From IMG/VR virus record IMGVR_UViG_2541047967_000005, positions 1-40,595 of that record: a stretch of DNA of 40,595 nucleotides; one strand, written 5' to 3'. Source of the stretch: a virus (lineage: Duplodnaviria; Heunggongvirae; Uroviricota; Caudoviricetes). Position 1 is the first letter of the stretch. Every line of letters begins with the position of its first letter. The notes beneath the pieces were generated by a model. It was not told the origin of the DNA, made no database searches, and worked only from the letters and a program-made list of their open reading frames with translations. Shown here one piece after another: positions 8,058-28,457 of this stretch. The position numbers and the translations under genes were made by a program.

Positions 8058-8138
8058 TAGTTTTTTATGGACGAAACAAAAGTCAGTGCTACACTCATTG
8101 ACGCCACATTGAGGTGGCTTATAGATGGAAATTTCACA

Positions 8139-8300: not shown

Positions 8301-8306
8301 AAACAA

Positions 8307-8322
8307 GGCCGCGAAAGCGGCC
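8307..8322. terminator. Bidirectional hairpin terminator between the convergent cassette and Bro2
   Basis: ggccgc gaaa gcggcc (GNRA loop); A-run upstream on plus equals T-run on minus; terminates Bro2 on the minus strand. Confidence 0.55.
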
Positions 8323-8323
8323 T

Positions 8324-8335
8324 GTGACATGTCAC
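8324..8335. repeat. 12-bp palindrome GTGACATGTCAC (copy 1 of 3)
   Basis: Exact palindrome immediately next to the bidirectional terminator, in the unique segment between the inverted-repeat arms. Confidence 0.7.
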
Positions 8336-8372
8336 GATAGTTTCGTTTTGCACATCCCTGTGCCGCCGCCCG

Positions 8373-9059
8373 TCAGAAGAACCCTGCCTTGTCGTTGATG
8401 TACTCCGCGTGCGTCTGGATATCACGCAGGCATTTGCTCACACCAACGATGTAGCAGAACATGGTGGTCAGCTCCGCCGCCGCGCCCGATACATCGTGCC
8501 CGTCTTCCTGTAACTGGTTCAGCAGATTCATCAGCAGTGAGTTCTCCGTCAGGCCGAGAACACCCGACGGAGAATGAATCAGGCTGCGGTAGCCGGGCTT
8601 CAGTGGGGCACTGTAGGTTTTGTTCTCTATCTTCATCGCCTGCATTACTGCTGACGCCGTGGCGTTGGCTACCTGGTCGGCAACCATCTTTATGCGTTCT
8701 TCCTGCGGGAGCGAGTTTTTAATGTAACTTCCGGTGCGGCGGATCTGAGGAAGAACCTCACCCGTAACCCATTTACGAAAGCGGTAGGGGATAGTGCCTG
8801 GTGTCACCGCATCGCGGCAGCGGAGGATCAGTGTGTAGAGGCCTGACTCGTTGATAATATTGGTTTCGCCTTGACGGCCTAAGTTAAATTTAGCCCTTTC
8901 ATCATCATCAAGAGATTTTATTGACATAGTGGGGTTTGTCAGTTGAAGAGCTTTAATAACGTCTTTGGCAACAAACCAAGGATTTCCATCAATAACAATG
9001 GCTCGAATGGTTGCCTCTGATTCAAAATGAAAAACAGATGGGGTTACGTTAGCAGTCAT
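8373..9059 (-). CDS. Bro-N domain anti-repressor-like protein (paralogue 2)
   Basis: Internal ATG (MTANVTPSVFHFESE...) with RBS aggtga; Bro-N pattern (IDGNPWFVAKDVIKAL); C-terminal 158 aa identical to Bro1. Confidence 0.75.
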   Translation of the reverse strand: MTANVTPSVFHFESEATIRAIVIDGNPWFVAKDVIKALQLTNPTMSIKSLDDDERAKFNLGRQGETNIINESGLYTLILRCRDAVTPGTIPYRFRKWVTGEVLPQIRRTGSYIKNSLPQEERIKMVADQVANATASAVMQAMKIENKTYSAPLKPGYRSLIHSPSGVLGLTENSLLMNLLNQLQEDGHDVSGAAAELTTMFCYIVGVSKCLRDIQTHAEYINDKAGFF

Positions 9060-9325
9060 AGTGATCACCTTTGTAGTTAGGTTAATCACCACTACCGACG
9101 CCAATCGGTTGGTGGTGAACTGTGCAGGGTTGGCGTAACCGGCTACAAAGGACCCGGCGCACCTTTCGGTGCCCCCACACAGCCCACCATAGAATAGGTG
9201 CGCTTTACACATAAAAAAACCGCTTATGCGGCATATGTGCCTCTGTAGTAACCCAGGACGCCAATCCCGGCACTGGATTTTGCCAGTGCCTGATTACTAT
9301 GGCACAAGAGGAGTGCGATGTAAAT

Positions 9326-9340
9326 TTACCGAAAAGGTAA
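9326..9340. promoter_or_regulatory. Operator-like palindrome TTACC-N5-GGTAA upstream of the Bro2 leader
   Basis: ttaccgaaaaggtaa; the mirrored site in the left arm (6108-6122, ttacctttgcagtaa) has one mismatch. Confidence 0.5.
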
Positions 9341-9487
9341 TGATAAACGCTAAGAAATATTAAAATCAACCATATTTGGTTAATGCGTATAAAAGAGCCA
9401 GCAGCGAGAAATTGTGCCGCGACGTAAAATAACGAGCATCTGCTGGCTTACAACCAGCGATGTTTCAAATTTGTCACTATTATCAAC

Positions 9488-9841
9488 GTGCCATTCCACG
9501 GCGCAGAACTTTATGTTGTCAATCACAACGGAGAACCGTACACCCCAATGAAACCTATCGTTGAAGGCATGGGTATGGATTGGGCTTCACAGTTTACGAA
9601 AATGAAGCAGCGGTTTAAAACCTGCATTGTGAAAATCACAATGCAGCTTCCTGGGGATGAACAGCGCCGTGAGATTATTTGTTTGGCACTTCGCAAACTT
9701 GCTGGCTGGTTGCAAACCATCAGCCCTAACAAAGTCCGCCCTGAAATCCGCGAAAGTATTGAAACATCAACCGTGTCGATATCGACACGGTTGATTATGA
9801 CGGTAACTTATTGCCGTGTGTCCTATTTCTCCCACCACTAA
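9488..9841 (+). pseudogene. Remnant of a P22 Ant-type anti-repressor (N-terminal domain only)
   Basis: GTG start with no RBS; FHGAELYVVNHNGEPYTPMKPIVEGMGMDW ... LRKLAGWLQTISPNKVRPEIRE resembles the Ant N-terminal domain, then degenerates and stops after ~117 codons; no C-terminal domain in any frame. Confidence 0.45.
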
Positions 9842-10138
9842 CTAATTATATTTGTCTTTAAAAATCTCATGGAATGATTGAGAGTAAGACTTTCCATACT
9901 TCAAATAACATTCTTCATCCAACTTTCTTAATGAACTTCGAACCTGTTCGTGGCATACAGCAAAAAAAACAAGTCCGCCGCCTATTAATACCCCTATTGA
10001 TATTGGGTTCGCAACATCCCATAAAAAATCGGCTAACAGAGCAAATACCCCACCGCCGCCAATAAATGCCCCTATAGCTCGGTTCGTTTTAGCTTGCTCA
10101 TAGCGTCTCTCTAACTCACTAAACTCTTTAATATCCAT
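9842..10138 (-). CDS. Small two-TM membrane protein; candidate superinfection-exclusion protein at a sieA-like position
   Basis: RBS agaggtg upstream of ATG; two Gly-rich hydrophobic segments; AT-rich; directly downstream of the ejection-protein genes and upstream of the anti-repressor region. Confidence 0.4.
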   Translation of the reverse strand: MDIKEFSELERRYEQAKTNRAIGAFIGGGGVFALLADFLWDVANPISIGVLIGGGLVFFAVCHEQVRSSLRKLDEECYLKYGKSYSQSFHEIFKDKYN

Positions 10139-10156
10139 ATAAGCACCTCTATAAAA

Positions 10157-13100
10157 TTACTTCATCACCGGATCCACCTGGTTTATTAGTGGCGCAATCC
10201 AGAACAGGTTATTGCCGGGTATCAGGGTTCGGACATTATGCACAATACGATCACCGGCATCACCATTCAACACTCCTGAGGTCACATCAATGATGCTATC
10301 CGCAAGACCAAATGACGGTCCGAATAGAGATCCTACGAATCCACGACTGGCATACCTGGACTGTGTGCCAGTGCCAAATAAAGCCCCCAGCCCAACAGCA
10401 CCACCAGTCGCCTTTTCAGCCATGTTGTTATATTCCATCAATGGCCCAAGAATACCGGATCTATCTATACCCTCAAGCACCAGCTTCTCTGGTGACCAGT
10501 CAACATTTTTCCCTTTCGATGCTTCTTTAAGCGCATAGACCAGTGAGCCAAGAGCAATCTGAAATGCAGTGCCATAATAAAATTGCGCAGTTCCTTCCTG
10601 TAACCCACCAAGTAGCGCACGGTTGTATGAAGCCGTTGTGAATGATTTAAACTGAAATATCGTTCGCCCCATTGGAGTACTCGCCCATAAAGGTGTGTCA
10701 CCAATACCGGGGGTGATGATAGTGTTATTAACGTCTTTCAGAACCGCTGACTGGAATACTCCGGCAACGTACTGATCGTCCCATTTATCAAAGTTACCAA
10801 TGTGCCATCCATCAATTACCTCACCATGTTTCTCGAACTCACTGCGAATACGCGCAGCCATATTGTCGTTGATACCGAGTTTTGCCAGGCGGCGTGCAGG
10901 AAATGCACCGGACAAAATACCGTCTGAAATAACCATTCCGTTCATGGATTTGTTTATGTCATTAAAGCGATCCATGAGTGTCAGCTTGCCGAAGGCATCA
11001 GTAATTCGCTCCATTCCGGCTTCGACTGCTGTTGTCCTGGAAGAGCTGTCAACAAGATCACCAATTGCACGAGAGCGTGAATGCAGTACAGTTTCCAGTC
11101 CGATACCCATCTTCAACATCTCTTCTTTGCTGGCCTTAAATGCCGGTGATTGGGATATCTGAGAAGCATAGCCTTTCATGGTGTTACGGAAACCATTAAC
11201 CATAACCCCTCTGGCCAGATCTGGAATAGCTGATACTGTCATTCCACCGAGTTTGGTCGTGAAGTTCACATCCCGCAGAAAAGCGCCAGCACGAACAAAA
11301 AACGAAGACGGATCATCAGGCATCCCATATGTACCAACAAGACGATCGCGTAATGCTGTTATGTCTCTGAGATCATTTGCTCTTGATTTTGAAAGTCTGG
11401 ACTGTTCTTTCCGTAATTCCTTTTCGTACTTTCGCATTAATGAATCGAGTTTACCCTGAGGAACAACTTCACCATTGCTCTCATAACGTGCTTTCAGATT
11501 TGCCACACTTTCGTCATATTTCGCCTTTATTTTTTCAGGCACTTCCCGTAACAGACTGTCATATTCGTCCTCAATTAATTGCAGACGCTCAGTCATAGTT
11601 CGTTTGCCAAATGTTCTCGTCAACTCAATTTCTGCTGCCGCTTCACGGATATGACGTTGCAGCACGTAATTCACATCACTTTCAAGATAATCCCTGATAA
11701 GACTATCAGGAACATTTAATGTTCTTTCTTTCGTACTACCTGCGGCTTTTACAGAAAATACGCTGACAAAATCCTGTGGAACCTTAGCACCAGTAATTTT
11801 ATTAATTACGATATCTGCTGCAATTTCAGCATCCTCAGGAACCAGTGTTTTATTTCCTCTCGACCACCAGTCAACCAAAATACGTCGAAATTTATCGCGT
11901 TCACTGATTATTTTTCCAACTTTATATATGCGTGGGAAATAGCTTGCCTGGCCTAATGCTTTCAGTTCTTCATCTGGCGGCAATAAACCAAGCTTTTGCA
12001 TTTCAACTTTCACCCGATTTAATACAGTTCGCATCGCCTGCGCCGTTTCCTGAACAACAGGATTAGCATGCACATCACCGCTTCGCATAGCATTCCCAAC
12101 CTGCTGACGAAATGAATCAAAACTCATGTCACCACCATCAGCTTTATACTTTGCGTATGCCTGTTTATTTCCGACAACAACAGCAGCTTCTTCACGCTGC
12201 CATCCACGTGTACGGGTTTCTACAGCTACCGGTGTTTCAATCCCCCTTTCATTTCCTTTAAGGGTGAAATTATTTTCGGCTAACTCCAGCGTTGTTTTTC
12301 GCACCGTCTTGGACGGAGACTCCATTAACCTTGTCAAAGGAGTAAGATAGCTCCCTGCTTTCCATGCAGCCTTTCCACCCCACCCACCGGAAACAGGGGT
12401 TAAATCATCCAGAGTCGCTGTATCAATTTTCATAGCACCAACACTACCACCATCGGAAAGCGAAGCGGCAGCCCTGTCAGTCGCTGATGTAATGCTCATA
12501 TTATCAAGAGCATCAGCAACCTCACGTGTGGCTGCAGCCCGGACGGATGGCGAAAGCGCAACACCAGCACTGGCAAACACGCCGCTCATCATCGCACCCG
12601 CTGCAACGTGAGCGGCACTTTCACCCCATGAGCGTGTTATTTGCTGATTATTCAGTACAACCTCGCTTAATGCTGTACCGGCAGCACCAATCGCAATCTG
12701 TGAGCCAATACGCGCCAGTGCCCCTCCTTGAGCACCTGGGATAAACATTGACGCAACAGTAACCGGGTCAAAAAGCATCGCTGTTGCACTGGCAATTCCA
12801 CCAGCTAAGCCTGCTTCAGAGATAAAACGCCGATCTTCATTTTCATCATCTATCTGCTGCTTAATCCACGCCGTTTCCTCTGGCGATCGGGAATCTGCAA
12901 ATTTCGCCCCCCAGTATTCATAACCGTGCAACTCATTTTTATCAGCATATGGGTTATAACCCTCGACCGGTTCAAACTGTCTGGCAGGACGGAAAAAACC
13001 AGCCAGAATATTGTTCTGTCGTATTGCTGCGGCAAGCAATGAAGGCTCTTTGGGACGAGGTTCAGGGTTCTTACCTTCTGGCGGATGCACATCAAAACTC

Positions 13101-13180
13101 TGTTCATCAGGTTCAGGAATGGCGAGACCAGCAGAAATAAATCCGTTATTGTTTGATTCAGATACAGGATAGAACGGCAT
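10157..13180 (-). CDS. Large internal virion / DNA-ejection protein (1007 aa)
   Basis: Last and largest of three consecutive internal-protein genes of a podovirus-type structural operon; RBS gaggat upstream. Confidence 0.55.
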   Translation of the reverse strand: MPFYPVSESNNNGFISAGLAIPEPDEQSFDVHPPEGKNPEPRPKEPSLLAAAIRQNNILAGFFRPARQFEPVEGYNPYADKNELHGYEYWGAKFADSRSPEETAWIKQQIDDENEDRRFISEAGLAGGIASATAMLFDPVTVASMFIPGAQGGALARIGSQIAIGAAGTALSEVVLNNQQITRSWGESAAHVAAGAMMSGVFASAGVALSPSVRAAATREVADALDNMSITSATDRAAASLSDGGSVGAMKIDTATLDDLTPVSGGWGGKAAWKAGSYLTPLTRLMESPSKTVRKTTLELAENNFTLKGNERGIETPVAVETRTRGWQREEAAVVVGNKQAYAKYKADGGDMSFDSFRQQVGNAMRSGDVHANPVVQETAQAMRTVLNRVKVEMQKLGLLPPDEELKALGQASYFPRIYKVGKIISERDKFRRILVDWWSRGNKTLVPEDAEIAADIVINKITGAKVPQDFVSVFSVKAAGSTKERTLNVPDSLIRDYLESDVNYVLQRHIREAAAEIELTRTFGKRTMTERLQLIEDEYDSLLREVPEKIKAKYDESVANLKARYESNGEVVPQGKLDSLMRKYEKELRKEQSRLSKSRANDLRDITALRDRLVGTYGMPDDPSSFFVRAGAFLRDVNFTTKLGGMTVSAIPDLARGVMVNGFRNTMKGYASQISQSPAFKASKEEMLKMGIGLETVLHSRSRAIGDLVDSSSRTTAVEAGMERITDAFGKLTLMDRFNDINKSMNGMVISDGILSGAFPARRLAKLGINDNMAARIRSEFEKHGEVIDGWHIGNFDKWDDQYVAGVFQSAVLKDVNNTIITPGIGDTPLWASTPMGRTIFQFKSFTTASYNRALLGGLQEGTAQFYYGTAFQIALGSLVYALKEASKGKNVDWSPEKLVLEGIDRSGILGPLMEYNNMAEKATGGAVGLGALFGTGTQSRYASRGFVGSLFGPSFGLADSIIDVTSGVLNGDAGDRIVHNVRTLIPGNNLFWIAPLINQVDPVMK

Positions 13181-13191
13181 TATTTAGATCC

Positions 13192-15888
13192 TCACGAAAA
13201 GTAATCTTTAAATTTGTCCATACGTTCGTTATGCAGGCGCTGATACTGCTCATCCAGAGCGCGATGCTTGTCTTTGAAGTTTCGTATAGCCTGTCCACGC
13301 ATAATTTCTTCCTGCTCGTGCTGCTCCCGTTCCTGCTGCATTTTCTTATAAGGTTCCCAATCTTCTAGTGATGGCCCCCAGCGCATCTGTCTTCCATGCT
13401 TGTCATAAAATAAATCATCCCTCGTAATACCATTTTTATCTTTTGTTCTGATCACAACTGAATAAAGCTTATCTCTCGGAGTTGATAAGTCAGGAACGAG
13501 AATCAACTCACCTCCAACCAGTGAGCGTGGCTTATTCAGTCCCAATGCACCAGCCTCAGTTGAAGGTCGGTTAAATGAAGGAGCCGGTTTATGTAAGTCA
13601 TCGCCATACATGATTTTTTCTTTTTCAGCCTTCCATTGCGCTGCAATCCAGCCTGACGGCCCATATTGATAAAGCGCCTCCGGTGCATATTTCATAAACT
13701 GTGCTTCCCCGTTGACCTCGCTGATACTCCAGGTGCGGGCTATCTGCTGGTTGGTCATTTGCTTCGCTACGTCAGCGTTACCACCAGCAAGGCGATAGTT
13801 AACGTCATACAGCATCTGATAGTCATTGCGAAAGAGCGCTGCTTCCGGCGTCTGGTCATCCGCAGACGGATCCCAGCGAAGCCAATGAGCCATATTGCTG
13901 ACAGCAGAATTGGCTGCGCTGTCACGCTCTTTTTTGTATTCTCTTGTACTCTGAACAGATGAGAGCTGCGCCCTTAGTGCATCTGTCTGGTTGTATGTCT
14001 TACTCTGCGCTTCCACAATAGCAGCATCAGAAGACATCCCTGCATCAGTTAGTTGCTTAACAGTCAGATAAAAACCCTGCATATCCTTCGGCATATTTCC
14101 AATAGATGCATTGTCTGTTTCATATAACCGACTAAACAGTTCCGCCGCATTTTTAACCACTTCCTGATTGCTGGATCGGGATACTGCTGAAAGCTGCGTG
14201 ATGACCTGCGAAGGCATTATGCCAGTCTGAGCCACAAGCCGAACAACCCCATCATGAGTGGAGGCATCATTAATACGAAAGTTCTGCGCCATTTCTGTGT
14301 AATCAGCAGCTTTCTGCATTGACTTGTTGCTTGGGTCTAATTTTTCACCTATTGTCAGCGCCTCATTGAATCTGCGTGAATCCCGTTGCGCCTGAATTGC
14401 TTCATTTGATCTCTGAAGCAATGCAGACAATTTTCCGTAAGCATCGAGTTTTAACGCATAGTGAGGATCGTTAACCTCAGGCTTCACTTTCTGCATTTCT
14501 TCTTGCTGCTGAGAAGGAGGCAAATACTGAATTGCCTGGAATATTCTCGCGTTATCAATCGCTATATCCAGTTGATTGATTATTTTATCTGCGTTTTTTC
14601 CATACCCCCTGATGATGGTCTCCTGAGCCGGTATATAATCTGGAACCTCACCGTTATATAGCTGGGCCATGGTGTTATTAATAGCTGGCTCAAGCTGTTC
14701 TAATATTAACTTCCTTTGCTTTTCTATCTGACTATTAGCAAGGTTATCTATTTGATAAATAGTCAGCGGATCCATTCCAGTTTTATTTTTTCTATATCGG
14801 GAAAGCCACCCTTGTGTTTCTGATGGAAGATTTCGGATAAATTCTTCTTCTGATATTTCACCTTTACGTGGATCACCGACTTTGGCGATCAGTTTATCCA
14901 CGTTACCCATCCCCCAGTTATATGCTGCTCCGGTCAATATTTCGGAACCGTACTTACCATACAGTTGATTTACATAGTCACTGGCGAGCATTTCATGCTG
15001 TTGTTCGTCCGTAGGGTTGTATTCAACGCCACGTTTGGCCGCCAGTTCTTTCCCTGTGCCCGGCATTAACTGGTATTTCCCCTGGGCCCTCTCTCCAGAA
15101 GATGTTTTCGGTCCTTCAAGAATACTACCATCAGGATTAAAATGACGATCACCTGATTCAACAAGGCGTATGGCACGCATGTCCATGCCTCCAGAATCAT
15201 TTTTCTGAAACTGACCATTTAACCATCCTTCCGGATTAGCAGCGGCATAATTCTTCGCCCGCATTTCTGTGGCACTGCGATCATCACTTTCTATTTCTTC
15301 CAGAATGCGTTCTTGTGACCATCCCCTGGCTGCTCCATATCTGGCAATGGCTACCATTCTGGAATTTCTGGCTAAAGTGGCAGTTTGCGGGTCATTCCAG
15401 GCATCCGCTTCATTTTGTATCCATAATTTTCTCGTTGCCTGATATTGCTCATCTTCATAGGCATTTGTCTGCCCTATCTCATGTCTGAGAACTCCAGTAC
15501 TGAACTGAATTTTCTGTGTTCTGGCTTGTTGCAAAAACATATTTCTTGCTGCTTCATCAGTCAATGAAGCAGCTATTTCTTCCACATCCTGATCAAATCC
15601 AGATATGTACTCTTGCCCCTTACCAATCGCATTTTTGCCTTGTTGTGCATAAAAACCGGTTTGAGGGTTATAAAGACGTTCATTGCTGCGCTGATTAAGC
15701 TGAAGGATGGCATCCTGAGACAATGCAACATTCGCTTTCTGCCTGGCTTCACCATATGCCACCGCATACTGATCTGCGACATTCGCCAGCACCTGACCTG
15801 CTTGAGGAACATCGAAGGTTTGAAAACCACCGGTTTGCACACCACGACTTTGCACCTGGCGTCCGGATGTAGTAGGAACAACAGGCAT
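13192..15888 (-). CDS. Internal virion protein with lytic transglycosylase (SLT) domain (898 aa)
   Basis: SLT motifs in residues ~225-330: catalytic-type VESG, GKYQLMPGTGKELA, AYNWGMGNV. Confidence 0.7.
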   Translation of the reverse strand: MPVVPTTSGRQVQSRGVQTGGFQTFDVPQAGQVLANVADQYAVAYGEARQKANVALSQDAILQLNQRSNERLYNPQTGFYAQQGKNAIGKGQEYISGFDQDVEEIAASLTDEAARNMFLQQARTQKIQFSTGVLRHEIGQTNAYEDEQYQATRKLWIQNEADAWNDPQTATLARNSRMVAIARYGAARGWSQERILEEIESDDRSATEMRAKNYAAANPEGWLNGQFQKNDSGGMDMRAIRLVESGDRHFNPDGSILEGPKTSSGERAQGKYQLMPGTGKELAAKRGVEYNPTDEQQHEMLASDYVNQLYGKYGSEILTGAAYNWGMGNVDKLIAKVGDPRKGEISEEEFIRNLPSETQGWLSRYRKNKTGMDPLTIYQIDNLANSQIEKQRKLILEQLEPAINNTMAQLYNGEVPDYIPAQETIIRGYGKNADKIINQLDIAIDNARIFQAIQYLPPSQQQEEMQKVKPEVNDPHYALKLDAYGKLSALLQRSNEAIQAQRDSRRFNEALTIGEKLDPSNKSMQKAADYTEMAQNFRINDASTHDGVVRLVAQTGIMPSQVITQLSAVSRSSNQEVVKNAAELFSRLYETDNASIGNMPKDMQGFYLTVKQLTDAGMSSDAAIVEAQSKTYNQTDALRAQLSSVQSTREYKKERDSAANSAVSNMAHWLRWDPSADDQTPEAALFRNDYQMLYDVNYRLAGGNADVAKQMTNQQIARTWSISEVNGEAQFMKYAPEALYQYGPSGWIAAQWKAEKEKIMYGDDLHKPAPSFNRPSTEAGALGLNKPRSLVGGELILVPDLSTPRDKLYSVVIRTKDKNGITRDDLFYDKHGRQMRWGPSLEDWEPYKKMQQEREQHEQEEIMRGQAIRNFKDKHRALDEQYQRLHNERMDKFKDYFS

Positions 15889-16454: not shown

Positions 16455-16918
16455 TATTTTCTCTCCATGTGAAATCTGTGGAAATTAAGACCAAGAGCAC
16501 CATAAGGCGCGGCTTCTTCAAGCCTGAATCCAAGCCAGTGCAGCCATGCTTTGGCAACATGGTTTCGCTCGTCGACATAGTTTTCCAGGCGCGGATAAAC
16601 TGCCAGCATCTGCTGCAATACAGGGCGGCAGTGGCGAAGAAATGTCTTCTGATATTTTTCGATGCGGCTGGTTCCGACCAGCCAGGGCGTACCATTGCCA
16701 CCGATCATTGACGCCGGAGATACGCCAAACATGGTTACCAGTTCTCCGTTCGCAAATCCTGACCAGGCCATAGTCGCAGTACGCAGACCAACACGCAGCG
16801 CATCTTCGGTAGTCATCAGTGATACCGCATACAGTTCGTCAATATCAGCCTGACGAACATCCGGCAAAATCATCTGAAGATGCTCTTCGGTAGCGGGAAT
16901 AATTTGAACATCGATCAT
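16454..16918 (-). CDS. Virion structural protein, unknown role (154 aa)
   Basis: In-operon ORF with tight coupling to neighbours. Confidence 0.4.
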   Translation of the reverse strand: MIDVQIIPATEEHLQMILPDVRQADIDELYAVSLMTTEDALRVGLRTATMAWSGFANGELVTMFGVSPASMIGGNGTPWLVGTSRIEKYQKTFLRHCRPVLQQMLAVYPRLENYVDERNHVAKAWLHWLGFRLEEAAPYGALGLNFHRFHMERK

Positions 16919-20323: not shown

Positions 20324-20367
20324 TCCTGCAATAAAGGGGCCGAAGCCCCTTGTCTGATCCGCGAGGC

Positions 20368-20712: not shown

Positions 20713-20713
20713 C

Positions 20714-21151
20714 TTAACCAGTTACTTTTGAGCGGATCGGATACGGCGTATTGGCATCAACATCCAGACTGATACCCGCAGTGAATTTGCCGGCCGTTAG
20801 TGGGCCAGTTGCGACGGAGTAGTTAACACGCAGATATCGCTGAACACCGGCAGGCACCTTTGCAGAAACAACTCGTTTACCTGCTGTCAGGGTATCCTTT
20901 GCCAGTGCGCCACTATCATAAATAGTGGACCATGAGCTGTTATTCTCACTCGTCTGCAACTGGATGTTTACAGTTTCCTCACCACTTGCCGTGGCGGCTT
21001 CGTTAACCAGCACCCAAAACTCAAGCGGATAACCCACGCCGATATCACGACGTTTTCCGTCAATTGGACCGAGATCGATTACGTCAGTAGAAGCCGCGGT
21101 ATTCGTAACCGCCTGAGCTTCGGAGAACATCAACAGTTTGTCGGTGATCAT
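20714..21151 (-). CDS. Putative capsid decoration / accessory protein (145 aa)
   Basis: Small beta-rich protein encoded directly after the major capsid gene. Confidence 0.4.
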   Translation of the reverse strand: MITDKLLMFSEAQAVTNTAASTDVIDLGPIDGKRRDIGVGYPLEFWVLVNEAATASGEETVNIQLQTSENNSSWSTIYDSGALAKDTLTAGKRVVSAKVPAGVQRYLRVNYSVATGPLTAGKFTAGISLDVDANTPYPIRSKVTG

Positions 21152-21202
21152 CTTCTTTCTCCATTAGTGGGTCTGTTACGACCCACAGGTTAATAACAGG
21201 CG

Positions 21203-22195
21203 TTACACCACGCGGGCTTCTGTTTCCAGAAGCGCATCAGTTTCACGGATTGGTACACCACGGAATGAAGTCCACCACTCGCCTTCTGTCTCTTTTACGC
21301 TGATCGCCAGAGATGTTTTCTCCAGAGATTGCAGATCAAGAGCCTGGCCTACAGTGCGGTTCATGTAGAACACCGGGCGACCCATGCCACGATTTGGAAT
21401 GCGATGCAGTGCTTTAACCATCAACTTCGCAATATTTGCGGCAGAGGAAGGTTCTGAAAGATTGCTGACATCGATGTTTGCAATGCGAACAACATAACGC
21501 CAGTCACGCAGAGCAAGTCCGTTGTCCCATTTGTAATGGGTACGGTAGCCTTCGTACTTGCCGCCATTCGCATCTTCCAGTGTCACCTGGCCTTTATCTT
21601 CCATCTGGATGCCAGCCTTCTGCCCTTTCGGGAAGATGCCATGCACGGTGTTTTCGCCCCACACCACTAACCAGATTGAGGTGTTATCTGTACTCGTGCC
21701 ACCAGCATCAATGATGTTCTGAGCATTACCCGCAGACAGGCTGGAATAGCGGGAGGACAGTCCCATAAACTGCTGAGGGTTAACGCTGGAATCACCATAA
21801 AACAGTGTCTGCGCCATCTGCTGATTCATCGCTTCAATAAATGCGCGGTCTTCAGACAGGCGGAATTCGGCAGTATTACCGTTCAGATCAGCCAGTGACT
21901 TATCGACTTCAGCATAGGTTTCCAGCATGCCAACGGAATCGGTTACCTGCACTGTGGTTGATTTGCTTGGCTGTACGCCATAGTTCAGCAAACGCCAGGT
22001 AGCTGAAGGTAAACCAGAACGAATGGTGGTTCGGTGTCCGGTAGGAAGGTTCCCTTCGACAAAAGGCATATCCTGAAGGATCGGGTTTGTTTGACCGAGA
22101 AGCTCGATAATCTTATCGACTTTCCCGTTTGGATCGACGCGCTTACCCCAGTCAGCCAGCGTTAGCGCAGTTAAGCCTTTAACAGCCATTGTCAT
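21203..22195 (-). CDS. Major capsid protein (HK97 fold, 330 aa)
   Basis: Size, position after the scaffold gene, strong RBS agagaggaa; composition typical of podoviral coat proteins. Confidence 0.7.
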   Translation of the reverse strand: MTMAVKGLTALTLADWGKRVDPNGKVDKIIELLGQTNPILQDMPFVEGNLPTGHRTTIRSGLPSATWRLLNYGVQPSKSTTVQVTDSVGMLETYAEVDKSLADLNGNTAEFRLSEDRAFIEAMNQQMAQTLFYGDSSVNPQQFMGLSSRYSSLSAGNAQNIIDAGGTSTDNTSIWLVVWGENTVHGIFPKGQKAGIQMEDKGQVTLEDANGGKYEGYRTHYKWDNGLALRDWRYVVRIANIDVSNLSEPSSAANIAKLMVKALHRIPNRGMGRPVFYMNRTVGQALDLQSLEKTSLAISVKETEGEWWTSFRGVPIRETDALLETEARVV

Positions 22196-22203
22196 TTCCT
22201 CTC

Positions 22204-22899
22204 TTATTTGCCATAGAGCACTTCGGCCGCACTACGCTGGCCTTCATTACCACCGGTGACCATGCCATCTTCAGACATCGCCTTTCCGATTCTCACGAAC
22301 GTTTTGACCAGATCAGGGTGATTACCCAGCCCGGTGGTGTTCAGATATTCTTTGAGTTCAGGTGTCCCGAACTGGTCAAGCGCACGCTGTGCGACGCTAA
22401 GGTTAGAAATCAACTTGCCGCCACCGATTTCTTTGTCAGCTTTTACATCCGCAGCCCACTGCTCGGTTGTTTTCTGCCAGGCTTCTGCCTGGCGCTGCTG
22501 AACACCTGCCAGAATCTTCGGATAAGCATCAACCAGCTTTTGCGCTTGCTCGTTGGTCAGGTTAAGTTCTCGCGCCACCGGCTCGAATTCCTTCAACGCT
22601 TCTGTATCCAGCTCTACGCCTTCGGCAGCCTGAAACTCGTACTTCTCAGGCGCACCCTCTGGTTTATCGCCGTCCTTTTTTTCACCCTGCTTATCGTTTT
22701 CAGGCTTTTTGTCATCAGCAGGTTTATCGCCATCAGCAACAGGTTGTGGCTTATCACCTTCCGGTTGTGATGGATCACCAACTGGAGCAGGGTTATCACC
22801 TGCAGGCGCTGACGGTTCTGACGCAGCCGGAGCTGCTCCACCATCGACTGGTTGCTCATTGCAAAGACGGCGATACAGCAAACGCTCAAATAAATTCAT
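22204..22899 (-). CDS. Scaffolding protein
   Basis: Internal ATG with RBS aggag (the track ORF starts at GTG 22905); Pro/Ala/Asp/Lys-rich N-terminal region then helical C-terminus; between portal and capsid genes. Confidence 0.6.
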   Translation of the reverse strand: MNLFERLLYRRLCNEQPVDGGAAPAASEPSAPAGDNPAPVGDPSQPEGDKPQPVADGDKPADDKKPENDKQGEKKDGDKPEGAPEKYEFQAAEGVELDTEALKEFEPVARELNLTNEQAQKLVDAYPKILAGVQQRQAEAWQKTTEQWAADVKADKEIGGGKLISNLSVAQRALDQFGTPELKEYLNTTGLGNHPDLVKTFVRIGKAMSEDGMVTGGNEGQRSAAEVLYGK

Positions 22900-22901
22900 G
22901 A

Positions 22902-23198
22902 TCACTCCTGTTCACTGGCCTCTTTGGCCATCTTCAAATACTGTTCAGGGCAATGCGCCATAACGCGCTGAAACAGTTCCAGCGCCAGATTGCGTTGCCC
23001 CTCATTAAATGCCATTGCCATAGCGTCCATCGGTGAGATAGCGGAAAACACACGGCCTTTCTCCAGCACCGACCAGACAACGCGACGCCCCTGTTCACTG
23101 CTCATGACAAAGCAAATGTCATCAATTTCACGCTGTGCCATGTCACGTTGCTTACGGGCGTTTTCTTCTTTCAGTTGATCGTCTTCGTAATCTGTCAT
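22902..23198 (-). CDS. Small acidic head-assembly-associated protein (98 aa)
   Basis: ORF coupled to the portal stop and scaffold start. Confidence 0.4.
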   Translation of the reverse strand: MTDYEDDQLKEENARKQRDMAQREIDDICFVMSSEQGRRVVWSVLEKGRVFSAISPMDAMAMAFNEGQRNLALELFQRVMAHCPEQYLKMAKEASEQE

Positions 23199-24874
23199 TG
23201 TGATTGCCCACCCTGACCACTAACTGCATTCGCCATAGCTGACAAAACACTCGGATCCGAAGTTTTAGCTTCGCTTAGCGTCTTGGCACCCTGTGCCGCC
23301 GCCATCCCCATCGCCATCATTTGTTGCTGCTGTTGTTGCTGTGCCCGTTGCTGGCGAGCCTGCTCAACCTGTTCCTGCGGAACAATGACGGTTGGAGACA
23401 CTCCGGACATATCAGCGAATGCATCGATCGCCTGATCAACGTTGAGTTTGTCGAGAGCTTCTGGTTTCGCTTGCGCAAGTTGACCAATGAAGTTGACCGT
23501 AGACGCCAGACTGGACAGGCCGATAGACTTCTGCGCCTGAGCCATGACGGAAATGTATTCGACCTTCAGGGGCATACCTTCCATCACGTCAGGCGGTGGC
23601 GGCAGCATGTTTTTACGCACCATCATCGAGAAAGCGCGGTCAATGAGAGGATTAAGACATTCGTCGTTCAGACGCTCCAGAACCGGCCCCAACATCAGAA
23701 GTTTTTCTTCTTTCATTTCGATCACCGCTTCAACAGGCATCGAGCGGGTATTGATGTTCTGCAACATCATGAACAGATCGACAAAGTAGGCGCTGTTAAT
23801 GATTTGACGGGTGTCCTGAATGTCTGCCACCAAATCTGCTGTACTGGGGTTAACCAGATAAGCAGGCCTGAAACCATCCTGACCAGTAATCAGATCGATA
23901 TACGTGATGTCGCCAGGAAGAAGGGAGGCACGCTGATTCTTGAGGGAAGTCGGAGCAACCATCGGCGGATTGGTGGCTTTATCAATCAACTGCGACTTGC
24001 GCTTCTGGAGAAGCTGCAATGCCTTAACAGGTCCAAGCGCCAGCATACCCGGGCATGATGATCCATAAACATCTTCGCCGTTAACTTCCCAGCGCGGAGC
24101 CATAATTGGAAACTCATCGAATCCGGACTCACGCAACAACTTGTCGTTATCGCCACCAACCTCGTAATAAACCGATTTGAATGGCTTGTTCTTGCTATCC
24201 AGCTTCGATGTATCGCGGTCAATGTTCGGGTAAACCGAATGCATCACTTCAATCCACTTCTCGTAGGTTCCGCTTTCCCACATGCTTTTTACGGATTCGC
24301 TGACGTTATTTAGCCCGAACTCCTGAACAAGCTGACGAACAGTCATAGAGAACTTGCGAAAACAGGTGTCCACACTGCCACGAGGTGAGTTAGCCAGGTA
24401 GTAACTGCCTATCGGGAATGGCATTGTGCGAATGATGTCCTCGTCATCCTCCAGCACTGCCATTGCACCAGTGCTGTATGTGCCGAGGCTTCCGTATAAC
24501 TGCGGCAGCGACTGATAGAGATTCGACTTATTGAACATATCGTTCATGCGGTTCTGCACCGCCTCAAGCCACAACTTAACAGGGCCATAATCCATCATTT
24601 CAGGATCTGGCGTAGCCAGGCGAAACCACGGACGCGCGGGGCTTGTGATGCCTGACATCATGCCGCTGGCGAGAGTGCGCGCCGCCATAGTCCCGGTCGA
24701 ATCAATAATGCGTGTATTGCGTCGATCGTTACGGTTGACCTCAGAAGTCAGAAAGCGGGAACCACGCGGGTTGATGTAATCACTCAACTCGCGCCAGTGC
24801 GGCTCGAACGACTGACGCTCGCTTTCAAGTTGTGCGAACTGTTTGTTCAATCGCTCTTTAGTTGTTTCCGCCAT
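23195..24874 (-). CDS. Portal protein (559 aa)
   Basis: Size and position; RBS ggag upstream; C-terminal Gln/Ala-rich tail. Confidence 0.7.
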   Translation of the reverse strand: MAETTKERLNKQFAQLESERQSFEPHWRELSDYINPRGSRFLTSEVNRNDRRNTRIIDSTGTMAARTLASGMMSGITSPARPWFRLATPDPEMMDYGPVKLWLEAVQNRMNDMFNKSNLYQSLPQLYGSLGTYSTGAMAVLEDDEDIIRTMPFPIGSYYLANSPRGSVDTCFRKFSMTVRQLVQEFGLNNVSESVKSMWESGTYEKWIEVMHSVYPNIDRDTSKLDSKNKPFKSVYYEVGGDNDKLLRESGFDEFPIMAPRWEVNGEDVYGSSCPGMLALGPVKALQLLQKRKSQLIDKATNPPMVAPTSLKNQRASLLPGDITYIDLITGQDGFRPAYLVNPSTADLVADIQDTRQIINSAYFVDLFMMLQNINTRSMPVEAVIEMKEEKLLMLGPVLERLNDECLNPLIDRAFSMMVRKNMLPPPPDVMEGMPLKVEYISVMAQAQKSIGLSSLASTVNFIGQLAQAKPEALDKLNVDQAIDAFADMSGVSPTVIVPQEQVEQARQQRAQQQQQQQMMAMGMAAAQGAKTLSEAKTSDPSVLSAMANAVSGQGGQSQ

Positions 24875-24888
24875 TTCAATGACTCCGG

Positions 24889-25095
24889 TTACTGACCAAG
24901 CAGCGTTTTACCGCTGGTATTAGCAGTTGATGTGTCGCCCTGAGAACCGGTAAGCAGCGTAGAACTACGACCAGCAGCAGCGCGACGGCGACGAGTTTCT
25001 TCGTCGCGGGCATCAACAACGGCGGCATCCTGCTCCTGTGGTGCTGCCTGAACTTCTGGTGTTGCAGGCACTGATGGTGAGCTACCCATGCACAT
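24889..25095 (-). CDS. Small hydrophilic protein (68 aa) upstream of portal
   Basis: RBS ggag 8 nt upstream; its initiation region (cggagtcattgatatg) is nearly the same as the portal one (cggagtcattgaaatg). Confidence 0.4.
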   Translation of the reverse strand: MCMGSSPSVPATPEVQAAPQEQDAAVVDARDEETRRRRAAAGRSSTLLTGSQGDTSTANTSGKTLLGQ

Positions 25096-25163
25096 ATCAA
25101 TGACTCCGTACGCAATTAAATTATTACCAATTTAACCACATATGATTTATTTATCGTAGACAG

Positions 25164-25200
25164 TTGACATTTAACGCGCGAATTATTACCTTTCAGGTAA
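25164..25200 (+). promoter_or_regulatory. Candidate promoter (-35 TTGACA) with operator-like palindrome TTACC-N5-GGTAA
   Basis: ttgaca at 25164-25169; ttacctttcaggtaa at 25186-25200; lies in a 400-bp non-coding region upstream of the tRNA. Confidence 0.4.
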
Positions 25201-25522
25201 CCAAAGAGTTCATTCCGGTTACTAACCTGACTGGCTTGTCGTTAAATTGAACAGGTGGAGTGAGCTTTTATTTTGAGCAGTACGGCGTATGGCACATGCG
25301 CCGATAGCGGTCTGGATGCGTTTAAGGGGCACCCTCCCTGGCTGTGGCAAACGAACCAGGTAGCCGGAATGTGCAAGTCGAGCGGTTTTATTCCGCGCAC
25401 GGGGATTCACCATCCCGGCGATTCGGTGTGACGCCTCGGAAGAGACGAGGGTACAACGATGAGAGCATTTATGGAGCCGCGACAAAGTGTGGCGCCTTAA
25501 CAGGCTAAGTGCTCTCAGCGTT

Positions 25523-25599
25523 GTGGCATTAGCTCAGTTGGACAGAGCAACCGCCTTCTAAGCGGTTGGTCGCAGGTTCGAATCCTGCATGCCACGCCA
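25523..25599 (+). tRNA. tRNA-Arg (anticodon UCU), argU-like
   Basis: 77 nt folded by hand: 7-bp acceptor stem gtggcat/atgccac, D stem gctc/gagc, anticodon stem accgc/gcggt with loop cttctaa (TCT), T arm gcagg-ttcgaat-cctgc, 3' GCCA. Confidence 0.85.
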
Positions 25600-25642
25600 G
25601 AATCACGCCTAAGGACCGTGATGCCAGAAGTTCCAGGTGCTT

Positions 25643-25684
25643 GGCGGTGATGGTTTCCCTTGAAGGACTATCACCGCCCTTTTT
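25643..25684 (+). terminator. Hairpin plus T-run downstream of the tRNA
   Basis: 9-bp stem ggcggtgat / atcaccgcc with an 18-nt loop, then ctttttac. Confidence 0.45.
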
Positions 25685-25762
25685 ACAGCAGGACGCCATT
25701 GCGATGACTTCATGCTGTAAACCAGTACAGCCACGGAAGGCATAACTCATTGCTTCCAGTTC

Positions 25763-25786
25763 GCCCGGTTCGCCGGGCATTTTTTT
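25763..25786 (+). terminator. Strong rho-independent terminator immediately upstream of the moron RBS
   Basis: gcccgg ttcg ccgggc followed by seven T; ends 12 nt before ATG 25798. Confidence 0.6.
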
Positions 25787-25797
25787 AAGGTGAGATT

Positions 25798-26220
25798 ATG
25801 AAAACAGCCGACATGCTAGCTAAATATCTAAATGAATGGCCGTGCAAATATGTACGCATTGTTCAGGGTGATGACTCAATTTTTTATGGTGTTTTTGCAG
25901 GAAATGAAATGCTTTGTGAAGCAATTCCAGGTGAGCGACTTGCCGGGTTAACGCTTAGCGATGACCATGGAATAGGAGTTACTTGCCATGACTGGATTTC
26001 AGCGCAGAAAACTGAAATGGAAAAAGGCAATGTGTTTGATATTTCTCGCGCTGTATACGCCAAAGAAAAAAGTGATGATGATTACATGCGCGAAAACTTA
26101 TACAACATGAAGTTACAATGCCTGGCTGAAGTGCTTAGTAAAAGATCTTTACTTGATGTGGTTGGTGCTGAGCAGGACGCCAAGGCAATCAACGCCGCAT
26201 TCGATAAAATAACCTTCTAA
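25798..26220 (+). CDS. Moron protein of unknown function (140 aa), encoded opposite to the structural operon
   Basis: RBS aaggtgag; sits between terL and the portal region on the opposite strand, next to the tRNA-Arg; own downstream terminator. Confidence 0.55.
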   Translation: MKTADMLAKYLNEWPCKYVRIVQGDDSIFYGVFAGNEMLCEAIPGERLAGLTLSDDHGIGVTCHDWISAQKTEMEKGNVFDISRAVYAKEKSDDDYMRENLYNMKLQCLAEVLSKRSLLDVVGAEQDAKAINAAFDKITF

Positions 26221-26224
26221 CGCC

Positions 26225-26236
26225 GTGACATGTCAC
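26225..26236. repeat. 12-bp palindrome GTGACATGTCAC (copy 2 of 3)
   Basis: Exact palindrome 4 nt before the moron terminator hairpin, just beyond the terL stop. Confidence 0.7.
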
Positions 26237-26240
26237 AATC

Positions 26241-26265
26241 AGCCCGCCGATTCGCGGGCTTTTTT
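26241..26265 (+). terminator. Rho-independent terminator of the moron gene
   Basis: agcccgc cgattc gcgggct followed by ttttt; overlaps the terL stop codon. Confidence 0.6.
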
Positions 26266-27739
26266 ATGCAAAAGGATCATAGTCTGTGATGGCTTTGCCT
26301 TGCTGGTTCTGCTGCCCAGGAATTCGCAGACGCTTCGACACAGGGAAAGCAAACGTCAGCAGTAGCGCATCGCCTTTACCCGGCGAACGCCCAAGCCGCT
26401 CCTTGATATCTTCCTTCGGTTCGATAACGATTTTACCGTCCACACGAACTTTGTACTCTGCTGCCGACAGGTCGTCCGCTGTTTCCTGGTCATCCAGCAT
26501 GCCGCCGAGCCTCAGCCATGTCTTGCATGAGTTGAACATCTCCCCACGCTTGTTGAGCATCTGCGGGTCAGTAGACGCGCCACCGAACGGAACAAGTTGC
26601 CATGTACGACCCCAGCCGTCACCGATTGACTTCAAACCGGTTCCGTAACCGAAGTCGATGAACACCGCGTCAGCCTGATACTGGTCTTCAAAGTCAGCGA
26701 TACGCTTCGCCATAATCAGATCGTCGGTAGTCTTGTTGCCAGTCCACAGCACCTTACTGTGTAGCCCCTGCCGCAGGTATATCACAGCGTCATCAACGCC
26801 GGAGTATGCCGGGTCAACGCCGATTATCACCGGAGCATGTGCAACCTGCGCAGCGGTTACCACCCGTTTCATTGCCTCGTCAGTAAGACCGGTAGGGATA
26901 AACTGCAATTCAGATGCATCAGGGAATATGCCGCGCACACGGATTTTAACGAAGTCGCTATCTTCCCCGTAGTCATCAACCCATTTCTGCAACTGCTGTT
27001 TGTTAGTGCCTTCCACCGTCCGGCTGTCAATCTGCGCAGTTTTCCAGCGGTGTTTATATTTGCGGAAACATTCGCGGAAACGCCCGGTGTTACGTGTAGG
27101 GTTTCCGAACGCTACCCAGATAATCTCAGTGTCTTCGTCCGTAAGCGCACCCTCAGCAACTTCCCACACCAGATCCGCAATGTTCGACGCTTCATCGAAT
27201 ACCACGATGATGCGTTTGCGCTCGTTGTGTAGTCCGGCGAACGCCTCAGTGTTGTGCTCAGACCAGGGGATTGCGTCAGCTCGCCACCGCTTGTCGTGCC
27301 CAGGGTCATTGCTGTACATCGCGGTAGCGGTACAGGTAAACCAGTCTTTCGTGATAGCAAGGTTTGACCACTTGATAATTTCCGGCCAGGTCTTCGTTCG
27401 TAGCTGGTTGTCGGTGTTGGCGGTCACCACGACCTTACAATCCTCGCAAGTGGACATGCCCCAGTTGATCAGCATTGAGATGAATGCGGATTTACCAATA
27501 CCGTGACCAGAAGCACGTGCCAGCATAAGCGGCTGATATCGCGTCTCTGGATTCTGCAGGTGATCACGTATCTCTCGGAACGCATCAGCCTGCCACTGAC
27601 GTGGGCCGGTGGCATGTGCCAGTTCAGTCCCCTCTTCCCCCCATGGGAACGCATAGAGGGCATAGCCAAGCGGATCGTGAGTGAACCCTGCAATATCCTC
27701 GATTAACTGCTCTTCAGGAGATAACGCTGTATCTGTCAC
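26264..27739 (-). CDS. Terminase large subunit
   Basis: 491 aa; Walker A-like GHGIGKS in the N-terminal ATPase region and acidic nuclease-region motifs; GTG start overlapping the terS stop (GTGA). Confidence 0.75.
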   Translation of the reverse strand: MTDTALSPEEQLIEDIAGFTHDPLGYALYAFPWGEEGTELAHATGPRQWQADAFREIRDHLQNPETRYQPLMLARASGHGIGKSAFISMLINWGMSTCEDCKVVVTANTDNQLRTKTWPEIIKWSNLAITKDWFTCTATAMYSNDPGHDKRWRADAIPWSEHNTEAFAGLHNERKRIIVVFDEASNIADLVWEVAEGALTDEDTEIIWVAFGNPTRNTGRFRECFRKYKHRWKTAQIDSRTVEGTNKQQLQKWVDDYGEDSDFVKIRVRGIFPDASELQFIPTGLTDEAMKRVVTAAQVAHAPVIIGVDPAYSGVDDAVIYLRQGLHSKVLWTGNKTTDDLIMAKRIADFEDQYQADAVFIDFGYGTGLKSIGDGWGRTWQLVPFGGASTDPQMLNKRGEMFNSCKTWLRLGGMLDDQETADDLSAAEYKVRVDGKIVIEPKEDIKERLGRSPGKGDALLLTFAFPVSKRLRIPGQQNQQGKAITDYDPFA

Positions 27740-28335
27740 TGATTGCCATCCTGACGTTCTTTCAGTCTCTTCCTGGCTGCCGCTATGCGATCAGCAATTG
27801 TCACATTCACATTAACATCCAGGCGTTCTTTGAATGCGTTGACGTCGACGTGCTTACCAATCAGTTCGAGGTTCTTCACCTTGTCAGGCCATTTAATTTT
27901 TTTGAGGATGCCAACCAGCTCTTTCTCGTCTCCACGGCCTTCGAACATGTCGGCCAGTTCGAAACCTGTCAGGTACTGCCGCCAGACCTTAGGCCATTCC
28001 GAGACCGGCTTGATGCTCATATCGTCGTTGAGAATGTCAATCACGTCCATCTGGTCGATCTCCACCAGGCGCATGAGAACGTAATCAGCACTGACGCGCA
28101 TTCGTTTGTTGCGCTCCTCCATCAACTCGGCAATCCGTTTTTGAATGCGTTCATCGCGCATCATGACACTGGCTTTAACTGCCGCTGTATTTGGGGAGAA
28201 TCCTGCGTTAATCGCTGCCTGAGTCTGGTTTTCAGGCGTTTTGATGTATGACTGGCAATAAGCCTCCTGCATTGCTGTTAGTGGCTTAAATTGCGTTGAT
28301 TTGCGTTTATAGGTTTTAGGTTCAGCAGGCATCAT
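27736..28335 (-). CDS. Terminase small subunit
   Basis: Internal ATG (MMPAEPKTYKRK...) chosen because a terminator lies upstream inside the longer track ORF; basic DNA-binding N-terminus, helical C-terminus; coupled to terL. Confidence 0.6.
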   Translation of the reverse strand: MMPAEPKTYKRKSTQFKPLTAMQEAYCQSYIKTPENQTQAAINAGFSPNTAAVKASVMMRDERIQKRIAELMEERNKRMRVSADYVLMRLVEIDQMDVIDILNDDMSIKPVSEWPKVWRQYLTGFELADMFEGRGDEKELVGILKKIKWPDKVKNLELIGKHVDVNAFKERLDVNVNVTIADRIAAARKRLKERQDGNQ

Positions 28336-28376
28336 AACCACCGTGGTAATAGTTACCGTTGTGGTAATAGTACCAT

Positions 28377-28404
28377 GCAAAATAAAGCCGCCATAGTTGG
28401 CGGC
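28377..28404 (-). terminator. Rho-independent terminator between the Cys-rich gene and terS
   Basis: Minus strand: gccgcc aactat ggcggc followed by tttatttt. Confidence 0.6.
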
Positions 28405-28445
28405 AGTATTCAAAACCCATCAAATTCATCATGCATAACCCACTC

Positions 28446-28457
28446 GTGACATGTCAC
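28446..28457. repeat. 12-bp palindrome GTGACATGTCAC (copy 3 of 3)
   Basis: Exact palindrome overlapping the stop codon of the 28454-28795 gene, about 40 nt upstream of the terminator preceding terS. Confidence 0.7.

Follow-up and report, generated by a model that had tools for sequence, protein, structure and literature searches.

We analysed IMG/VR virus record IMGVR_UViG_2541047967_000005 (positions 1 to 40,595; this whole stretch of 40,595 nucleotides is called the window below), in which an exact 12-base pair palindrome, GTGACATGTCAC, occurs three times at borders between gene modules. The 12-mer is the core of a 14-base pair dyad, Y-GTGAC-AT-GTCAC-R, and most probably the cognate operator of a 112-amino acid protein with a predicted ribbon-helix-helix (RHH) fold and a predicted zinc cluster, whose gene ends inside one of the copies. 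As a whole, the sequence comparisons are best explained if the palindrome is the predicted operator of the phrog_536 protein family (the epsilon15 gp49 family) and if the bound protein has a role at the borders of transcription units, which we infer from the positions of the sites; we put the probability of this combined reading at about 0.68. The window is an epsilon15-like (Uetakevirus) prophage with PAS61, phiV10 and TL-2011b as its closest relatives, and its orientation is reversed relative to the epsilon15 and phiV10 records.

The preliminary description of this DNA had reported three exact copies of the 12-mer, two of them flanking the terS-terL pair, and had held them to be more than chance would give. 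All of this proved correct: GTGACATGTCAC is a perfect palindrome found at 8324, 26225 and 28446 and nowhere else in the window, the second and third copies do flank terS and terL, about 0.0024 copies would be expected in 40.6 kb by arithmetic, and none of 100 dinucleotide-preserving shuffles of the window contained a single copy. Site 1, with its flanking bases, reads T-GTGACATGTCAC-G (8323..8336, 12-mer at 8324-8335) and is located 37 nucleotides downstream of the stop codon of the minus-strand Bro-N gene (8373-9212). Site 2, C-GTGACATGTCAC-A (26224..26237, 12-mer at 26225-26236), lies between a plus-strand moron (25798-26220), which ends 4 nucleotides before it, and the convergent terL. Site 3 has the same flanks, C-GTGACATGTCAC-A (28445..28458, 12-mer at 28446-28457), and contains what had been overlooked earlier, the stop codon of the upstream gene: the TGA at 28456..28454 on the minus strand ends the 112-codon reading frame at 28454..28792. 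A copy with one mismatch, GTGCCATGTCAC, is located within a structural gene (23135..23146); it was found again in TL-2011b (at 16873) and not in epsilon15, and is therefore probably not a functional site.

On the transcribed strand, the order of stop codon, palindrome and intrinsic terminator is the same at all three sites. Site 1 is abutted by the hairpin (8323..8306) of a minus-strand terminator, AGGCCGCTTTCGCGGCCT plus T-run (8296..8323), which ends the Bro-N unit. The hairpin (26241-26260) of a plus-strand terminator, AGCCCGCCGATTCGCGGGCT plus T-run (26241..26268), follows 4 nucleotides past site 2 and belongs to the tRNA-Arg/moron unit. Site 3 is followed after 41 nucleotides by the hairpin (28404..28387) of a minus-strand terminator, GCCGCCAACTATGGCGGC plus T-run (28377..28404), which ends the early-right operon and is located upstream of the Rep-operator/terS promoter region. 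The terminators had been placed correctly before, but the hairpin at 8306-8323, described then as bidirectional, is not clearly so, since the scan scores it as a terminator on the minus strand only. The 12-mer itself did not qualify as an intrinsic terminator, as it forms a 4-base pair stem at most and lacks a T-run; the terminators are distinct hairpins beside it.

As late transcription proceeds, three successive units each end at one of the sites, namely the early-right operon, terS-terL, and the structural genes plus Bro. Each of the following units has its own promoter with a Rep operator, TTACC-N5-GGTAA (28353, 25186 and 5727), opposite-strand cassettes sit between the motif and the next promoter, and the distance from motif to promoter ranges from 72 nucleotides to hundreds of nucleotides. 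None of the three copies overlaps a regulated promoter. A promoter at site 3 itself was considered, where GTGACA resembles a -35 hexamer and one promoter-like match was flagged at 28457, and was rejected because the transcript would begin within the terminator. Counted over all the phages in the analysis, 34 of 97 sites have the motif ahead of a terminator within 60 nucleotides; at 10 sites the terminator comes first, and 7 of these have bidirectional hairpins. With a stricter detector that accepts perfect stems only, a terminator follows 30 of 90 sites compared with 3% of random positions. A Serratia prophage of another type shows the arrangement in compact form (stop codon, 4 nucleotides, motif, 3 nucleotides, terminator), there between a protease-like head gene (phrog_3742, with a weak match to the phrog_458 protease) and the major capsid gene.

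The three sites are found again in the relatives of the window. Epsilon15, which is about 77-83% identical to the window where the two can be aligned at all, contains exactly three copies at equivalent places: between terL and a convergent moron (2142), overlapping the stop codon of gp18 with a terminator directly after it (19517), and overlapping the stop codon of gp49 ahead of the terminator that precedes terS (39612). SPN1S has all three copies as well (2174, 19662 and 38653). For phiV10 and Tyrion, scans of the linear records miss the third copy because the records were opened inside the palindrome: two copies lie within each record and the third straddles its ends, with phiV10 opening at GTGA|CATGTTAC (a copy with one mismatch) and Tyrion at GTGACA|TGTCAC, exactly midway through the palindrome. 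In TL-2011b and BUCT711, the copies at the gp49 stop and at the operon end are retained, and the one after terL, where both carry a different moron, is missing.

Taken site by site, epsilon15, TL-2011b, Tyrion, SPN1S and BUCT711 have an exact equivalent of site 3, and the terminator GCCGCCAACTATGGCGGC is kept in epsilon15, Tyrion and TL-2011b, even though the window and epsilon15 do not align in the stretch that separates motif and hairpin. The position of site 2 is occupied in epsilon15, phiV10, Tyrion, SPN1S and several of the genome loci described below, with different morons joined at the motif. The equivalent of site 1, consisting of the motif and a GGCCGC-N4-GCGGCC terminator, stands after different genes in epsilon15, phiV10, Tyrion, SPN1S, TL-2011b and BUCT711. 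Among 78 usable IMG/VR loci with a gp49 homologue (1.36 Mb in total), the exact motif is located at the gene stop or 3 nucleotides after it in 74 and with one mismatch in the remaining 4; the copy after terL is present in 55, and no further copies were found elsewhere in the 1.36 Mb. Absence of the 12-mer from equivalent junctions of close relatives, together with a lack of protein binding, had been named in the preliminary description as what would speak against its idea; the 12-mer is present there, and in distant relatives too.

The gene that ends in site 3 (minus strand, 112 amino acids plus stop) belongs to phrog_536 and is a homologue of epsilon15 gp49, phiV10 p55 and N15 gp46. It is located at the end of the early operon, just ahead of the late genes, and PHROGs labels the family as transcriptional regulator. 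The predicted protein consists of an arginine-rich N-terminal helix, an RHH core, a C-terminal four-cysteine cluster and a final helix, so that a cognate protein with a strand-helix-helix fold is predicted next to the site. R8, R13, R43, Y50, E54 and L59 are invariant in the family alignment; four cysteines are conserved, three of them (C79, C82 and C99) without exception in a 52-sequence alignment and C91 without exception among the eight sequences of a smaller one. The window protein has no Pfam or NCBIfam match above threshold, and a sequence search of the PDB returned no relative; RHH_1 and TacA1 appear below threshold in a few family members, and a few distant homologues carry a precomputed PF10723 assignment. 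The family comprises about 240 clusters at 50% identity, has no Pfam model and is spread over podo-, myo- and siphoviruses and phage-plasmids of Enterobacterales, Vibrio and Aeromonas.

Gene and site also occur together in phages that are otherwise unrelated, and in most lineages the distance from the site to the stop codon of the gene is no more than 10 nucleotides, with an overlap of the two as the usual case. The Pectobacterium myovirus ZF40 shares with the window a 65%-identical homologue, gp22, and is unrelated to it apart from this gene; it contains three exact copies of the 12-mer, one starting 2 nucleotides past the stop codon of gp22, another in the 3´ end of a cII-like gene and the third within gp08. 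The homologues in N15 and phiKO2 are 35-37% identical, and there a variant, GTGACTGGTCAC, overlaps the stop codon of gene 46 (gp45 in phiKO2), with further copies in repA and, in phiKO2, also upstream of a terminator. The dispersed partition sites annotated in phiKO2, GTGCGACCACGGTCGCAC (14632, 17072, 22111 and 25345), are a palindrome family distinct from GTGACTGGTCAC. In a P2-like Yersinia phage, the stop codon of the family gene is overlapped by GTGACGCGTCAC, and Vibrio phage K303 has three GTGAC(GC/AC)GTCAC copies, one of them about 30 nucleotides upstream of terS. P2, lambda and P22, taken as negative controls, have neither the gene family nor the motif.

For a broader survey of prophages, one genome per species was taken, which gave 47 loci from about 20 genera, and the DNA around them was fetched (10 kb on each side where the contig allowed, 866 kb altogether). 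These loci contain 66 GTGAC-N2-GTCAC sites compared with 0.83 expected, and in 29 of the 47 a site is located within -48 to +60 nucleotides of the stop codon of the gene, usually at offset -1 (G|TGA). At one of the gene-stop sites, in a Citrobacter werkmanii prophage, a promoter-like TTGACG and a LexA-box-like CTGTGTATTTATACAG were seen about 45 nucleotides downstream of position 10336, with no terminator. The converse question was put to IMG/VR with one 14-mer version of the site: among the 80 chunks listed, 51 are homologous to gene-bearing reference phages and 23 carry the gene itself, which makes a weak test of the link in this direction.

Copies within coding regions provide a different kind of evidence. 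In phrog_2479 genes of the early-left region, found in ZF40 and in Serratia and Symbiopectobacterium prophages, the 12-mer is read in frame as the codons C-D-M-S (at 5125 in ZF40 and at 2039, 3487, 1353 and 1565 in the numbering of the other loci). It is exact in all of them, while the flanking sequence is only 37-46% identical (37-39% for ZF40 compared with the others). On this comparison, an exact 12-mer in such divergent coding sequence is the mark of selection on the DNA.

The site also shows symmetry beyond the palindrome used to find it. Among 103 unique contexts, 96% have a pyrimidine at -1 and a purine at +12, two positions outside the search pattern. The half-sites GTGAC and GTCAC are invariant, as are the N-terminal arginines of the protein, and the two central bases change with the protein clade, and in particular with its predicted beta-strand: (R/T)KLELxL is paired with an AT centre, NEIRARL (Yersinia) with GC (6 of 6), TRRDWVL (N15/phiKO2) with TG, QELRLKV (Vibrio) with GC or AC and KKLELKL (Pantoea) with GT or AC (3 of 3). 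Since the flanks are symmetric, the centre varies together with the beta-strand, half-sites and arginines are both invariant and exact copies persist in coding sequence, one protein dimer would sit on the dyad, with the variable beta-strand reading the central two base pairs and the invariant N-terminal arginines, or basic arms, reading the GTGAC half-sites. A short dyad-symmetric site that co-occurs and co-varies with such a protein is what an operator of an RHH regulator would show. Of the roles suggested in the preliminary description, a binding site for a late-gene regulator therefore survives in part: the binding site has strong comparative support and its likely binder is encoded just upstream of the third copy, but nothing points to a regulator of late genes, and the sites are at the 3´ ends of units and not at promoters.

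Several RHH regulators, of the fold class predicted for the phage protein, can be compared with it, among them Arc and Mnt of P22, CopG, MetJ, TacA/KacA and ParG/omega. The phage system shares with them a short dyad-symmetric operator that is located beside the gene of its regulator and that the beta-sheet probably reads. Their operators, however, overlap promoters or centromeres upstream, whereas here the best-conserved copy overlaps the stop codon of the regulator, and the others are located between stop codon and terminator or inside genes. They also lack the C-terminal four-cysteine module, and no curated family model matches the phage protein.

What the bound protein would do is a separate question. 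Because the site lies between stop codon and intrinsic terminator, the role proposed for the protein is that of a boundary element where transcription units end, and such a role fits the positions better than promoter activation does, since the distance to the next promoter is so variable. It might be a roadblock or insulator that keeps RNA polymerase from crossing from one unit into the next, or it might be a factor that modulates the adjacent terminator. As the first site is at the end of the protein's own gene, newly made protein could load in cis. We regard boundary, roadblock or terminator control as a possible function, with the odds somewhat against it being the actual one. A more elaborate version is more doubtful still: a phage boundary-element system in which the cis-loaded RHH/zinc protein on 14-base pair matS-like palindromes decides at unit borders whether RNA polymerase stops or reads through, perhaps also bridging sites as MatP does and thereby looping the phage genome, with the same sites serving as preferred joints for the exchange of morons.

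Transcription roadblocks are known, such as LacI at O2, CodY and CcpA, and Tus-Ter. The likeness to them is in the supposed action only, in that a tightly bound dimer on a short palindrome within or after a transcription unit would, by analogy, stop RNA polymerase in either direction; and these roadblocks are not known to have an intrinsic terminator consistently placed directly downstream, unlike the phage sites. Small phage proteins, some of them with zinc fingers, that bind DNA and alter RNA polymerase at nearby terminators or late promoters are known as well, namely lambda Q at its binding element and P2 Ogr. The protein studied here resembles them in being a small phage protein encoded at the end of an early operon before the late genes. 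Their sites are at promoters, in contrast to the variable promoter distance of the phage sites, and ZF40 and N15 already encode Q-like proteins alongside the phrog_536-family gene.

A number of observations weigh against the operator and boundary reading. What connects protein and site is co-occurrence and co-variation, and common descent links many of the loci, so that fewer independent events are represented than the counts suggest. Eighteen of the 47 genome loci have no site at the gene stop, 4 have none in the fetched DNA, and about one third of the listed viral chunks with the 14-mer show no homology to gene-bearing reference phages. Some copies lie inside genes (in ZF40, in repA of N15 and in BUCT711). 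Aeromonas phage 14AhydR10PP has a variant, GTGACCGGACAC, in two copies with matching flanks (251 and 3032), 25-26 nucleotides upstream of open reading frames, and there it precedes the family gene itself, the classical position of an autoregulatory operator, unlike the 3´ position in the enterobacterial phages. Because of the copies inside genes and the upstream Aeromonas variant, the function of the site may differ between lineages. As regards the boundary role, a roadblock upstream of a working terminator appears redundant, and the protein is not expected in the lysogen, when the morons beside sites 1 and 2 are expressed.

The alternative that survives best is a recombination linker, as the preliminary description had also suggested. 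The 12-mer and its terminator would then persist mainly through the exchange of modules and morons, with no protein-mediated regulation or with a protein that only targets recombination. The linkers of lambdoid phages, which were put forward as substrates for recombination and have no cognate protein in that proposal, are likewise short conserved sequences exactly where exchangeable modules meet in a mosaic genome. Alignments of the three junction classes do show that homology breaks exactly at the motif while the 12-mer stays exact, so that at all three sites a conserved short sequence stands at a mosaic junction: after terL, several moron families join the conserved terL and hairpin at the motif, and the stop codon of the moron is often only 4 nucleotides away; at site 1, different genes meet a conserved terminator; and at site 3, a conserved gene meets a spacer that cannot be aligned. 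The loss of the post-terL copy in TL-2011b and BUCT711 together with a change of moron is consistent with this, and epsilon15-like phages encode RecT/exonuclease systems. However, 12-14 base pairs are short for homologous exchange, and any selected island within variable DNA looks like a junction, so that the coincidence with the motif is equally expected of a conserved functional element. A linker also leaves unexplained why the sequence is tied to one gene family in unrelated phages, co-occurring and co-varying with it in contrast to the lambdoid linkers, why exact copies exist in divergent coding sequence, and why the Y/R flanks and the match between centre and beta-strand exist. We thus consider a linker on its own unlikely.

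It might also be possible that the element acts in the RNA. GUGACAUGUCAC would then be located in the 3´ untranslated region just 5´ of the terminator hairpin and would influence termination or mRNA stability by self-pairing or dimerisation, by processing or by binding the zinc cluster. The polar order of stop codon, motif and terminator (34 sites against 10) would fit this, UGA-C followed by AUG is embedded in the motif, and the annotators of epsilon15 placed RNase III sites in these intergenic regions, not at the motif itself. Against such an element, the 12-mer alone forms a stem of only 4 base pairs that the flanks do not extend, no Rfam family was found at the motif, and copies are also located inside coding regions and, in Aeromonas, upstream of genes. 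The perfect dyad, its symmetric Y/R flanks and a partner predicted to have an RHH fold are what marks a site recognised as double-stranded DNA, and an RNA element is accordingly very unlikely.

A host factor has to be considered because of MatP, the organiser of the Ter macrodomain in E. coli; host MatP, or another host regulator, would bind the matS-like sequence and tie the phage DNA to the organisation or regulation of the host chromosome. MatP has a four-helix bundle and a coiled coil, instead of which the phage protein has a basic helix and the four-cysteine cluster. The half-sites GTGAC and GTCAC are the very ones found in matS, MatP, which has an RHH domain, is among the structural neighbours of the phage protein, and all the hosts are MatP-bearing Enterobacterales or Vibrio. 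The matS consensus, however, is GTGAC[AG]N[TC]GTCAC, 13 base pairs with a spacer of 3 nucleotides (RNY) (PMC3603311), and is not matched by the phage site, which has a spacer of 2 nucleotides at the three window copies and in all 103 contexts, themselves collected with an N2 search. Prophages have been reported to lack matS altogether; the phage sites are at gene and operon ends in phage genomes, whereas matS is in the chromosomal terminus. The centre of the site varies with the clade of the phage protein and not with the host, and the site is tied to the stop codon of the phage's own gene. An hhalign comparison of the family profile with MatP gave a probability of 0.1%, only the generic RHH fold being shared. 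Binding by MatP or another host factor is hence hardly probable as the function of the site. Vibrio phage K303 carries, at 6769, a true 13-base pair matS-type sequence, GTGACACCGTCAC, beside its three 12-base pair sites. The binding site of SlmA, a TetR-family nucleoid-occlusion factor of the host, is also a 12-base pair palindrome that starts with GTGA and ends with TCAC (GTGAGTACTCAC), but 4 of the 12 positions are not the same as in the phage motif, whose invariant C5 and G8 are among them.

A nuclease or packaging target, be it a pac, cos, homing-endonuclease or restriction site, is highly improbable and the earlier suggestion of a nuclease target found no support: two copies do bracket terS-terL and the Tyrion and phiV10 GenBank records open inside the palindrome, but there are three copies per genome instead of the single site of a pac or cos function, phages whose terminases are unrelated carry the motif too (N15 and the P2-like group, for instance, are cos phages), and no nuclease domain was detected in the linked protein. 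The family is circularly permuted with headful packaging, and the authors of the Tyrion genome report circular permutation with terminal redundancy; a genome end at the palindrome was rejected for this reason, the start of the Tyrion record being arbitrary.

The window contains further elements. The operator of the epsilon15 repressor, ATTACC-N5-GGTAAT, was considered as a source of the palindrome and set aside as a separate family with 10 exact copies in the window. Counted as TTACC-N5-GGTAA, the epsilon15-type Rep operator has ten exact copies (5727, 7175, 9326, 25186, 28353, 31919, 31981, 34312, 35024 and 35086, with an additional position at 28335 next to that at 28353) and five copies with one mismatch, compared with 0.58 expected. 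These operators are found ahead of terS, the gp3/portal operon, the tailspike gene, the Bro cassette and a toxin cassette; since they lie in front of late and accessory units, these units appear, judging from operator positions, to be repressed directly by the prophage repressor. The toxin cassette consists of two genes (7232-8057, plus strand), phrog_5933 and an open reading frame similar to the YafO toxin (below the Pfam threshold), with its own Rep-type operator at 7175. A small open reading frame (8067-8300) follows it, convergent to the Bro unit, and ends near site 1.

Two cassettes of isrK and C4 antisense RNA were detected with Rfam (66-80 bits), at 9108-9289 on the minus strand and at 6159-6343 on the plus strand. 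The former is at the start of the Bro-N gene and the latter upstream of the open reading frame at 6377-7102, and the pair looks like a duplicated, divergently oriented antirepressor control module of the P1 immI type. The opposite-strand moron unit between terL and the portal operon contains a tRNA-Arg gene (anticodon tct, 25523-25599, plus strand), followed by terminator-like hairpins at 25643-25678 and 25763-25778. Within the minus-strand open reading frame at 32815-33630, six tandem or near-tandem repeats of 18-24 nucleotides, TCCCGTTTTTGGG, at 33228-33375 look from their sequence like the iterons of a replication origin.

RHH regulators with palindromic operators are in themselves familiar. 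Three features appear to be new, namely an uncharacterised protein family, a matS-like site and an operator located at the regulator's own stop codon and just before terminators. A full-text literature search for the 12-mer and five variants returned nothing relevant, searches of the literature on epsilon15, phiV10 and Tyrion gave no mention of the motif, and the GenBank annotation of epsilon15 lists repressor, IHF, RNase III and terminator features, not the motif. We know of no earlier description of a dedicated late or boundary regulator in epsilon15-like phages. These phages include serotype-converting prophages of O157, Salmonella and Klebsiella, for which a named gene and three defined sites are now available, and GTGAC-N2-GTCAC, the predicted target of the phrog_536 family, can be annotated automatically. 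A matS-like site that is one base shorter, in prophages that otherwise avoid matS, raises the question of cross-talk with the host MatP or avoidance of it. If the site is functional as proposed, it would represent a new wiring of a DNA-binding protein into transcription termination or insulation.

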